From Escherichia coli (GTDB lineage Bacteria; Pseudomonadota; Gammaproteobacteria; Enterobacterales; Enterobacteriaceae), in assembly GCF_001677475.2 (NCBI RefSeq), contig NZ_CP015229.1: DNA of 64,000 bases; one strand, given 5' to 3'. The translations under genes were made by a program, and so were the position numbers. This document shows positions 4,307 to 5,876 of this stretch, in pieces (the first letter of the stretch is position 1; the number at the start of each line of letters is the position of its first letter). The notes under the pieces are model-generated. The model had not been told where the DNA came from and searched no databases. It saw only the letters and a list, made by a program, of their open reading frames with translations.

Positions 4307-4972
4307 TCAAACAAAACCAGCCGTTTTCCGGCGTTCATACTCCTGTTTCAGCAACTCAATTGGCGTTGGTCCCGACGGGCGTTTGGGTGCCGCCAGTTGT
4401 CGCCGGACTGGCGGAATGCTCAGGCCATTACCAACATGCTTTGCCCATTTCGTCAGTTGCCGTTCTGCAAGCCGTTTTAACTCCCCTTCGGTCATCTGGC
4501 GCTCAATCCCCTTTGAACGCATCTCGAGGCAAATGTGATACAGCACAGGCTGAGACCACGGGTACTTATCACTTCCGTCGTATCGCCAGGACTCATTGCG
4601 CCAGCGGCGGTACTCCTCCATCACAGCATCCACCGTCAGACCGAATGGATTGGCTCCGCTTTCCGAAATCAGTGCCACAAACTCAGCCAGGTCCGGAGGC
4701 CATGTTTCACCCGCCCGGCAGCGGTCCATGCACTGGCGGCAGACCTGCCGGATTTGCTGCTCAGTCATCGCGCCAATCTGTGCAATCCAGAGCTTCGAAG
4801 GTGCGGCCCCGTTCTTCCGGGGCCAGCGGTTCGAATAAACCTCCCCCATGAGTTCCCACAGCTTCCAGGCCGTTTCCGTCGCTGATAAATCCGTTTTCAC
4901 GTTCCCACTGCTCACGTGCTGCCCGAATTTCCTGAACTGCCCGTGATGCGGTGCCACCTGGTGCTGCTGCAT
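4307..4972 (-). CDS. Lambda P-like replication protein (helicase loader); start uncertain
   Basis: C-terminal half aligns in pattern with lambda P ([28 protein letters not shown]) from memory. The ORF as listed overlaps the upstream gene by 212 bp; internal starts at about 4846 or 4768 are more likely. Confidence 0.55.
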
Positions 4973-5876
4973 GGTTTGCCCCCTTGCTGACTGGTTTAAC
5001 CTGTGCCCTGACGTGATTTACGTGACGGGCGAATTTCTGCTCCCACTGAACCTGCGTGAAAACTTTACCCTCCTCAGTCCAGTAATCCCTGAATGCGGCA
5101 AGTTCAGCAGGTGTAAATTCCGGCTCTGGCAGAGCCATCCCCCACAACGCAGCCCGTCGTCGAAAATCCCGTGACGGATACCAGCTATCGGTCATCGGAA
5201 ATTTTCCGATGGGTTCGTTCACGCCGTCCAGGAGCACGGGGGGGGTTGTCTGTAGCGACAAAACTCCCCGCTCACTGGTCGGAGCACTCTCACGTGCGTT
5301 ATGTGTGGGGTTTAGATCTTTGGGTTCCTTTGGGTTCCGTGATCCGTTTTTGGGTGTCTTTGATGGAAAATTTGGGTGTCTTTGGTTATTTTCCATGCAG
5401 CAAAGAGTTCCGTTTTTGGGGCTGTTTTGTGCTGAAACATAACCGTTTTCGGTACTGTTTTTATTAACAGCACCAATTTTACCCACCTTTAAAGACACCC
5501 GTTTTTGGGTGTATTCAGGCTCGGCAACACTTTCTTCTACACCGATAAGTCGGTACACCACAATTTGCTTTGTTCTGCCTTTTCTCTCACCGGTATCAAT
5601 AATTAACCCAATCTCCATCAGGTGTCGTAAGCTGTCCTGCACAGTCTTTTTGTTCAGTTCCGTTACTTCTGCCAGTGCAGATACAGACGGGTATGCACAC
5701 AAATCGGCACCGCACATATCAGCAAGCCAGGTCAATACTGACTTACTGGATGAACTGCCGGTTTTCACCTTTTTAGCCCACCGTAGTGCATCGATACTCA
5801 TACGAACCTCTGGCAGACATTTGTTTATCTGCAAAGTAATAATGATATTGCTGACGATACGCATGCTTGAAAGCAA
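4761..5876 (-). CDS. Prophage replication initiation protein (N-terminal HTH, C-terminal DnaT-like domain)
   Basis: N-terminal winged-helix-like region (SVSALAEVTELNKKTVQDSLRHLMEIGLI), low-complexity linker, C-terminal WYPSRDFRRR...ELAAFRDYW...WEQKF resembling DnaT/DUF1376-type phage replication proteins; probable true start near 5801 (MSIDALRW). Confidence 0.6.
   Translation of the reverse strand: MLSSMRIVSNIIITLQINKCLPEVRMSIDALRWAKKVKTGSSSSKSVLTWLADMCGADLCAYPSVSALAEVTELNKKTVQDSLRHLMEIGLIIDTGERKGRTKQIVVYRLIGVEESVAEPEYTQKRVSLKVGKIGAVNKNSTENGYVSAQNSPKNGTLCCMENNQRHPNFPSKTPKNGSRNPKEPKDLNPTHNARESAPTSERGVLSLQTTPPVLLDGVNEPIGKFPMTDSWYPSRDFRRRAALWGMALPEPEFTPAELAAFRDYWTEEGKVFTQVQWEQKFARHVNHVRAQVKPVSKGANHAAAPGGTASRAVQEIRAAREQWERENGFISDGNGLEAVGTHGGGLFEPLAPEERGRTFEALDCTDWRDD

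Follow-up and report, generated by a model that had tools for sequence, protein, structure and literature searches.

We consider it quite probable that positions 4307–5876 of a 64,000-nucleotide (nt) stretch of Escherichia coli contig NZ_CP015229.1 (RefSeq assembly GCF_001677475.2; the whole stretch is called the window below) hold the replication module of an E. coli prophage of the Rac/lambdoid type, with a genuine dual-coding overlap of 212 nt between two genes. The genes of this region are all on the minus strand. The upstream gene of the pair, in the position of lambda O, encodes an initiator with a DnaT-like domain, and the downstream gene encodes a helicase loader resembling lambda P. 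The initiator and loader open reading frames (ORFs) have 4761–4972 in common. The loader is read in the +1 frame relative to the initiator, and the third (−1) frame is closed by stops. An earlier note on this DNA had pointed out the 212-bp out-of-frame overlap and had labelled the pair a replication module with a DnaT-like initiator and a lambda-P-like loader. The overlap is confirmed by the ORF listing and our own translation, and the label by matches from Pfam, PDB, PHROG and Foldseek. As explanations, the same note offered an internal start of the loader, a genuine long overlap or a frameshift.

Where the loader gene starts

The overlap was compared in a divergence sample of 22 loci from about 15 enterobacterial genera. 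The sample covers Escherichia albertii, Enterobacter, Klebsiella, Citrobacter, Salmonella, Pluralibacter, Phytobacter, Kluyvera, Pectobacterium, Prodigiosinella, Symbiopectobacterium, Erwinia, Dryocola, Samsonia and one unclassified Enterobacteriaceae isolate. A sample of close relatives comprised 85 loci, and the relatives from an IMG/VR scan (E. coli, 95–100% identity) were used for polymorphism, not for divergence. Across the 22 diverged loci the overlaps measure 113–227 nt and the two frames always stand in the +1 relation. An ATG is found at the equivalent of position 4972 in every one of them and opens loaders of 214–224 amino acids (aa), except in L102, where a 230-aa loader carries a C-terminal extension; loader homologues of 214–224 aa are found in many genera. 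In 21 of the 22 loci a Shine-Dalgarno sequence, either GGAGGT or AGGGGG, precedes this ATG by 5–9 nt, and in 21 of the 22 the duplex energy is −7 kcal/mol or lower. The mean for this start is −9.3 kcal/mol, against −2.7 kcal/mol for 2316 other ATGs of these loci, 7% of which reach −7. Among the close relatives, the 221-aa ORF and its Shine-Dalgarno sequence are kept in 82 of 85.

The start signal is embedded in the most variable part of the initiator, a linker with an aa identity of 0.28. The nucleotides nAT-Gnn are constant although the initiator residues lying over the ATG vary (Asn, His or Tyr, followed by Ala, Val or Glu), and the recurrent 'GG' of the linker is how the Shine-Dalgarno site translates in the initiator frame. 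Judged from these alignments, selection in the linker acts on the start signal and not on the initiator protein. Conservation of the loader protein also extends far toward its N-terminus. Residues 35–67 (AWxLWExMGEIYSNRWxxKNGxxPSxLWIAQIG) are nearly invariant among loaders that are 53–70% identical overall, and the near-invariant residues 34–68 all lie upstream of 4768, where RefSeq starts the E. coli protein. Met69, the residue encoded at 4768, is replaced by Leu in several genera. Since conserved residues precede it and Met69 is itself not conserved, 4768 cannot be the start of the family, and the internal start that the earlier note had placed there is excluded as a family-wide one. The aligned diverged homologues do not show the uniform start at an internal Met that the note would have taken as the sign of an ORF-calling artefact. 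Its option of a genuine long overlap is borne out, both by the conserved ATG and Shine-Dalgarno sequence at 4972 and by the protein conserved upstream of 4768. In our assessment, comparison of the sequences makes it rather likely that the loader is translated from its own Shine-Dalgarno sequence and ATG (4984–4970) inside the initiator linker.

The long form of the loader can further be compared with lambda P. PHROG 109, 'P-like helicase loader', aligns its positions 22–235 of 236 with loader residues 19–220 (5.4e-62). Pfam PF06992 (Phage_lambda_P) matches residues 60–188 (1.5e-16; 61.1 bits with a cut-off of 26), the first ~30 positions of the profile being unaligned to the loader, and no NCBIfam model matches it. 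In a profile search of solved structures, lambda P was matched at 6e-4. This PDB alignment did not extend upstream of loader residue 69, and therefore only PHROG 109 and the similarity of fold relate residues 34–68 to lambda P domain II. The AlphaFold2 model of the loader is of moderate quality, with a mean predicted local distance difference test score (pLDDT) of 67 owing to linkers. When it was submitted to Foldseek, the top six PDB matches were all lambda P chains or domains (9oa1, 9oa2, 8v9s), taken from structures of DnaB-P complexes and including full-length lambda P, 9oa1_Z (220 aligned columns). E was 1e-5 with 220 aligned columns, and the template modelling (TM) score was 0.89 on domain III. 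The model predicts disorder for residues 1–24 (pLDDT <50), confident helices at 25–46, 49–54, 60–67 and onward (25–72), and a C-terminal helix at 204–217.

Domain I of lambda P (residues 1 to ~30–40), the 'N-terminal lasso', is flexible and disordered in solution and attaches to DnaB at the breach; domains II and III are both compact, and domain IV is the C-terminal lasso (PMC12661323). The 221-aa loader, as modelled, would reproduce this layout, its residues 1–24, which are predicted to be disordered, being placed like domain I without sequence similarity to it. The 153-aa form in RefSeq is without three confidently predicted helices of the domain II equivalent. By its homology, the loader would bind DnaB and, with the help of the initiator, bring it to the origin. 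A loader 75% identical to that of E. coli, long N-terminus included, was also encountered on a 560-bp contig of Vibrio sinaloensis DSM 21326 (L101). Because of the contig size and the similarity, this contig is probably an enterobacterial contamination.

Division of the overlap between the two frames

Upstream of the overlap, the +1 frame of the initiator contains 0.043 stops per codon. Within the overlap, the loader frame of the 22 diverged loci contains no stop in 1516 codons, where ~66 would be expected from that density; the overlap is therefore more than a chance opening. Openness was also examined by resampling the synonymous codons of the constrained frame in 20 taxa, which are related, so that the trials are not independent. 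By this procedure the loader frame between Met1 and Met42 is open in ~0.55 of the resamplings per taxon and was observed open in 20 of 20 taxa, and the initiator frame from Met42 to its stop is open in ~0.28 and was observed open in 19 of 20. For the initiator tail, openness exceeds chance by a wide margin, and for the loader leader by only a modest one.

The overlap can be divided into two parts, A (4972–4874) and B (4873–4761), according to the frame that is constrained. Divergence was measured as aa identity and as synonymous difference, the latter being the share of identical-residue pairs with differing codons. In the initiator frame, the aa identity is 0.59 in the DnaT domain, outside the overlap, 0.54 in the helix within part A, and 0.44 in part B; the respective synonymous differences are 0.53, 0.51 and 0.11. 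In the loader frame, the aa identity is 0.30 for residues 1–33 in part A, 0.63 for residues 42–70 in part B, and 0.62 outside the overlap, with synonymous differences of 0.32, 0.54 and 0.56. The value of 0.11 for the initiator in part B arises because initiator third positions are loader second positions. The polymorphisms of E. coli were also sorted by codon position. Those at initiator codon position 3 number 19 of 31 upstream of the overlap and 10 of 21 in part A, and those at loader codon position 3 number 15 of 27 in part B and 83 of 130 downstream of the overlap. The constraint is partitioned, with one frame per half of the overlap and a switch of the dominant frame midway. Double constraint at the same sites was found in neither half (synonymous difference 0.51 versus 0.53 for part A, 0.54 versus 0.56 for part B). 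Simultaneous selection on both frames was considered and dropped, as the synonymous rates of the dominant frame are not reduced.

Two sites of the overlap may be mentioned separately. The Val codon of 'RAVQ' in the initiator helix (4934–4936), a site compared in 21 loci, never reads GTG: 16 of 17 taxa have GTT or GTA, so that residue 13 of the loader is Phe or Tyr. The bias is a single-site hint of selection on the loader leader, one that is not robust to shared ancestry and multiple testing. At 4817–4822 the loader of the window reads WPRKNG where nearly all relatives read WTQKNG. The two nucleotide differences change the conserved PLDPEE of the initiator frame to PLAPEE.

Several points weigh against a dual-coding overlap of the full length. 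The evidence for the long start is entirely comparative. Loader residues 1–33 display no detectable aa selection (identity 0.30; initiator synonymous difference 0.51 versus 0.53), and the openness of the stretch from Met1 to Met42 is weak evidence at ~0.55 per taxon by resampling. At the synonymous sites of the loader, no trace of the last 29 initiator residues is detectable (0.54 versus 0.56), and these residues are absent from Symbiopectobacterium (L088), where the initiator stops exactly at Met42. A good Shine-Dalgarno sequence precedes Met42 in three to four taxa, and Met42 is possibly used as well. The loader annotations in RefSeq are also shorter.

RefSeq start calls for the loader family are inconsistent, and the start question is unsettled in the databases. 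The annotation produced by the Prokaryotic Genome Annotation Pipeline (PGAP) starts the loader at 4768 (153 aa) in all three E. coli genomes inspected (L003, L004, L005). RefSeq homologues in Klebsiella, Citrobacter, Salmonella, Pectobacterium and others start at the equivalent of 4849 (~180 aa), one GenBank phage record starts later still (140 aa), and older GenBank and metagenome gene calls give 214–223 aa. If Met69 were the start, its ATG would form an 8-nt ATGACTGA overlap with the initiator stop codon (4763–4761), a junction form classical for coupled genes, and the long ORF would be an artefact of ORF calling. However, residues 34–68 upstream of it are among the most conserved of the family, and the truncated form would lose, besides the three helices, the part aligned with lambda P domain II. 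The substitutions in 4873–4761 also follow the loader frame, not the initiator frame. In view of this, together with the Leu found at this residue in other genera, we regard a start at Met69 as highly improbable. The earlier note had given the position of this codon correctly (4768–4766) and had placed the other internal Met at 4846, where the actual codon is 4849–4847.

This other codon, Met42, has more in its favor as the start, yet we consider it unlikely. With it the true overlap would be 89 nt, and the 41 codons upstream would be untranslated or irrelevant. Such a start would agree with the ~180-aa forms in RefSeq, with an aa conservation that begins at about residue 34, with the strong Shine-Dalgarno sequence in three to four taxa, and with an upstream frame that about half of the taxa would keep open by chance alone. 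In L088, moreover, the ATG of Met42 overlaps the initiator stop, the classical layout of translationally coupled genes. Of the 22 diverged loci, 21 keep Met42, and the codon is CTG in Dryocola (L107). Nevertheless, the Shine-Dalgarno sequence of Met42 is weak in most taxa (−4.2 kcal/mol in the window; mean −5.7, −7 or lower in 4 of 22), whereas the long start has a strong one in 21 of the 22 loci. The conserved AWxLWE lies upstream of Met42, and lambda P and PHROG 109 possess an equivalent N-terminal segment. A conserved ATG with its Shine-Dalgarno sequence in an otherwise variable initiator linker would have no obvious reason if the loader began at Met42. The start at 4972 is preferred on these grounds. 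A programmed ribosomal frameshift in the overlap, which would yield an initiator-loader fusion, can be conceived from the adjacent (+1) frames, the run of five G at Met42, and the match of PHROG phrog_15931 (482 positions) to both proteins. This option of the earlier note finds no support: stops close the −1 frame relative to the initiator, the G run gives way to GGA, GGT, GGC or GCG in other taxa, no slippery motif common to the taxa was seen, and the loader has a conserved start site of its own. The fused proteins P0088 and P0025 are singletons from internal deletions, and in L103, the sole locus with swapped frames, both genes are disrupted by a 1-nt indel. We give a programmed frameshift hardly any credence and retain separate translation of the two genes.

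The matches of phrog_15931 cover the C-terminal half of the initiator and the loader, and the fusions P0088 and P0025 are YdaU-loader and DUF1627-loader proteins. The family appears to be a chimeric cluster, with fused ORFs as its seed. In L103 (L103:2438–2689, Leclercia adecarboxylata NCTC13032) the 1-nt indel lies in the G run at Met42 and swaps both frames, the loader frame entering the initiator tail and the initiator frame entering nonsense. Either the module of this locus is pseudogenised, or the indel is a sequencing error in the homopolymer.

Table 1. Positions in the window of the two genes, their overlap and the signals discussed
Feature	Position	Strand	Basis or remark
Initiator ('O-position') gene, 346 aa	4761..5801	-	ORF and translation; Pfam, PDB and PHROG matches
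Helix-turn-helix segment, initiator N-terminal domain	5601..5696	-	Pfam HTH_36, sub-threshold
Probable iterons	5319..5515	.	repeat search
DnaT-like domain, initiator residues 197–266	5004..5213	-	Pfam PF17948, 2.8e-17
Shine-Dalgarno AGGGGG of loader	4979..4984	-	6 nt upstream of ATG, in initiator linker
Lambda-P-like helicase loader, long form, 221 aa	4307..4972	-	start ATG 4972–4970
Dual-coding overlap (probable)	4761..4972	-	last 70 codons of initiator and first 70 codons of loader
Overlap part A	4874..4972	-	initiator frame selected, helix at 4949–4890; loader residues 1–33 a variable leader
Overlap part B	4761..4873	-	loader frame selected, start of folded part; initiator a weakly constrained acidic tail
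Internal ATG, Met42	4847..4849	-	RefSeq start in other genera (~180 aa); possible secondary start
Internal ATG, Met69	4766..4768	-	RefSeq start in E. coli (153 aa)

The initiator tail and its loader

Loaders of the type studied are preceded by initiators of at least five architectures. These are helix-turn-helix (HTH) plus DnaT, an unassigned N-terminus plus DnaT (L087, L093), DUF1376 (the YdaU family), Phage_rep_O, and others without a Pfam match. All of them end alike, in an amphipathic helix, a Gly-rich stretch and then LFEPLDPEERG...DxxDWxDD. The YdaU-family initiators precede relatives of the studied loader in L088 and L107. The YdaU of E. coli K-12 is 61% identical to the initiator of L088 up to QGLFxPxG, and beyond this point the tails are unrelated; the partner of K-12 YdaU is a DnaC-like ATPase loader, and the two genes do not overlap. 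Similarly, the initiators of L108 and L110 have a common lambda-O-like C-domain up to '..GG' and then different tails. In L108 the helix tail goes with the studied loader type, and in L110 another tail goes with a loader having lambda-type domains I–II, across a 17-nt overlap. The difference in tails parallels the difference between the N-termini of the two loaders. As far as these sequence comparisons reach, the tail follows the loader, not the initiator. Because the matched pairs show the tail moving with the loader, the unit of exchange would begin at the embedded start signal.

A mosaic loader is present in L110 (L110:1213–2887, Silvania confinis) and in L111, a Leclercia metagenome-assembled genome, in both cases behind a Phage_rep_O initiator with the different tail and the 17-nt overlap. 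The N-terminal half of this loader is lambda-type (full Pfam profile, 1–161) and the C-terminal half is of the studied type. This arrangement suggests that loader domains I–II match the initiator tail and that domains III–IV, which bind DnaB, are exchanged independently. In AlphaFold2 predictions the helix has a pLDDT of ~90 when it is fused to the loader via a flexible linker, versus ~74 alone. The helix is probably a loader-docking element of the initiator. The dependence of this role on co-inheritance and a modest pLDDT difference has to be counted against it.

A mechanism can be proposed from these elements. The N-terminal HTH domain of the initiator would bind iterons inside its own gene. 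The start of the loader is embedded in the initiator linker, so that the loader would begin 70 codons before the end of the initiator, in the +1 frame. Part A encodes the initiator helix, the loader frame there giving a leader that is probably disordered and positioned as lambda P domain I. Part B encodes the first conserved helices of the loader, equivalent to lambda P domain II, and in the initiator frame a disordered, loosely constrained acidic tail. The helix may then recruit the loader, or a loader-DnaB complex, to the origin. In lambda, the C-terminal part of O pairs with P. With the helix written over the 5′ end of the loader gene, a recombined loader would bring its cognate docking peptide along, and any initiator placed upstream of the loader would gain a matching tail. 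The embedded start site may also couple translation of the loader to the ribosomes traversing the initiator message. The overlap could thereby be a portable adaptor, in which loader genes carry in the second frame a docking peptide (helix and tail) that fits any upstream initiator. We put this forward tentatively, as an idea with somewhat less than an even chance of being right. If true, the adaptor would be a genetic device by which phages with highly mosaic genomes keep the interacting surfaces of two proteins together, and it would explain the same tail in at least five unrelated initiator architectures.

Initiator, putative origin and known systems

The initiator is built of an HTH N-terminal domain, a low-complexity iteron-bearing linker, a DnaT-like domain and the C-terminal tail. 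Its ORF extends from 5876 (TTG) to 4761. The ATG at 5801 follows AGAGGT and is likely the start (346 aa), rather than the TTG at 5876, and RefSeq annotates the same coding sequence of 1041 bp in a 99.4% identical E. coli locus. The upstream ydaT-like gene (6324–5773, minus strand) shares 29 nt (5773–5801) with the beginning of the initiator gene, and RefSeq has the same 29-nt overlap in the near-identical locus. The DnaT DNA-binding domain, PF17948, is matched at 62.6 bits with a cut-off of 25, and the solved DnaT C-domain structures 6aep and 4ou6 match with E of ~2e-19 (2.2e-19 for 6aep). The N-terminal match to HTH_36 is weak (E 3e-4; 20.9 bits, under the cut-off of 25), and the domain is presumed to bind the origin. 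The Pfam search gave no match of PF04492 (Phage_rep_O) to the initiator at E up to 0.01. PHROG families of the 'replication initiation O-like' kind match residues 1–175 at 1e-7 to 1e-11. The earlier description, an HTH N-terminus and a DnaT-like C-terminus rather than a lambda O fold, is therefore right for the C-terminal half and fails for the N-terminal part, where these O-like families match. An assignment as DnaT orthologue was rejected, since the NCBIfam equivalog NF002770 scored 91 bits against a cut-off of 201 and aligned at positions 82–156 only. On the strength of these profile matches, the initiator is a phage protein with a borrowed DnaT domain.

The linker between the two domains is rich in PKNG, and the DNA that codes for it contains five to six direct repeats resembling CCGTTTTTGGGTGTCTTTG, together with an inverted copy. 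The repeats are 14–19 nt long and include the direct families D1–D3 and the inverted pairs I1 and I3. Ori-lambda lies inside gene O. As the arrangement of the repeats equals that of ori-lambda, they are probably the iterons of the prophage origin. The neighbors of the module are Rac-like, with dicA/dicC-like regulators and the ydaT-like gene upstream and a DUF1627 gene downstream. The region shares 96% identity with the 'PPompW' prophages of Shiga toxin (Stx)-producing E. coli. Matches with coverage of at least 80% occur in 905 of 5426 complete E. coli genomes.

As a replication module this one belongs to a known kind, and some database records already contain the long ORF of the loader. A search of the open literature found no description of the overlap or of the initiator class; most papers in subscription journals were outside this search, and a prior description is possible. 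What is apparently undescribed is a real overlap conserved across Enterobacterales, the split of constraint within it, and its character as the mark of a tail-plus-loader cassette. To our knowledge, few conserved out-of-frame overlaps of such length exist in bacteria or double-stranded DNA phages, and they are usually dismissed as artefacts. The present one is well supported comparatively and joins two proteins that must interact. With the start at 4972, the loader is annotated 68 residues too short in three RefSeq E. coli records and 41 too short in other genera. The short models are without part of the folded protein, and work on structure, interaction or expression based on them would use a truncated protein. 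The short helix is a probable loader-recruiting element of the widespread phage initiators of the DnaT-domain and YdaU types. The overlap also offers an idea of how mosaic phages could keep the specificity between initiator and loader.

The closest known systems differ from this module in separate features. With lambda O-P it shares the order of initiator then loader, iterons inside the initiator linker, and a Phage_lambda_P loader with a predicted fold like lambda P. The C-terminus of lambda O and P are exchanged together between phages, and here too the C-terminal part of the initiator and the loader appear to move together. In contrast to lambda O, the initiator has a DnaT-like domain and a helix tail in place of the lambda O C-domain, and Phage_rep_O is not matched. 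The overlap of the lambda O and P genes is 4 nt; here it is 212 nt, compared with 17 nt in the lambda-type loci L110 and L111. The ydaU-ydaV pair of the Rac prophage of K-12 likewise has ydaS/ydaT-like genes upstream and a DUF1627 gene downstream. It differs in its DUF1376 initiator, YdaU, which is without the helix tail, in its DnaC-like ATPase loader, and in a 6-nt gap between the genes. Rac-SA53 carries the same DnaT-domain-plus-P cassette as the module studied here. E. coli DnaT (primosomal protein I) is homologous to the initiator through its C-terminal single-stranded DNA-binding domain, which corresponds to residues 197–266, and the N-terminal domain of DnaT is replaced in the initiator by the presumed HTH origin-binding domain. 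Long out-of-frame overlaps in phages and viruses are represented by lambda Rz/Rz1 and by overprinted viral genes. The overlap of this module resembles the Rz/Rz1 type in using one strand and frames 0 and +1, in a putative internal ribosome-binding site within the upstream gene, and in having at each position one frame constrained and the other of low complexity or disordered. It is distinguished from that type in that the ends of two consecutive, interacting replication genes are joined without a nested new gene, and in that the constrained frame switches midway.

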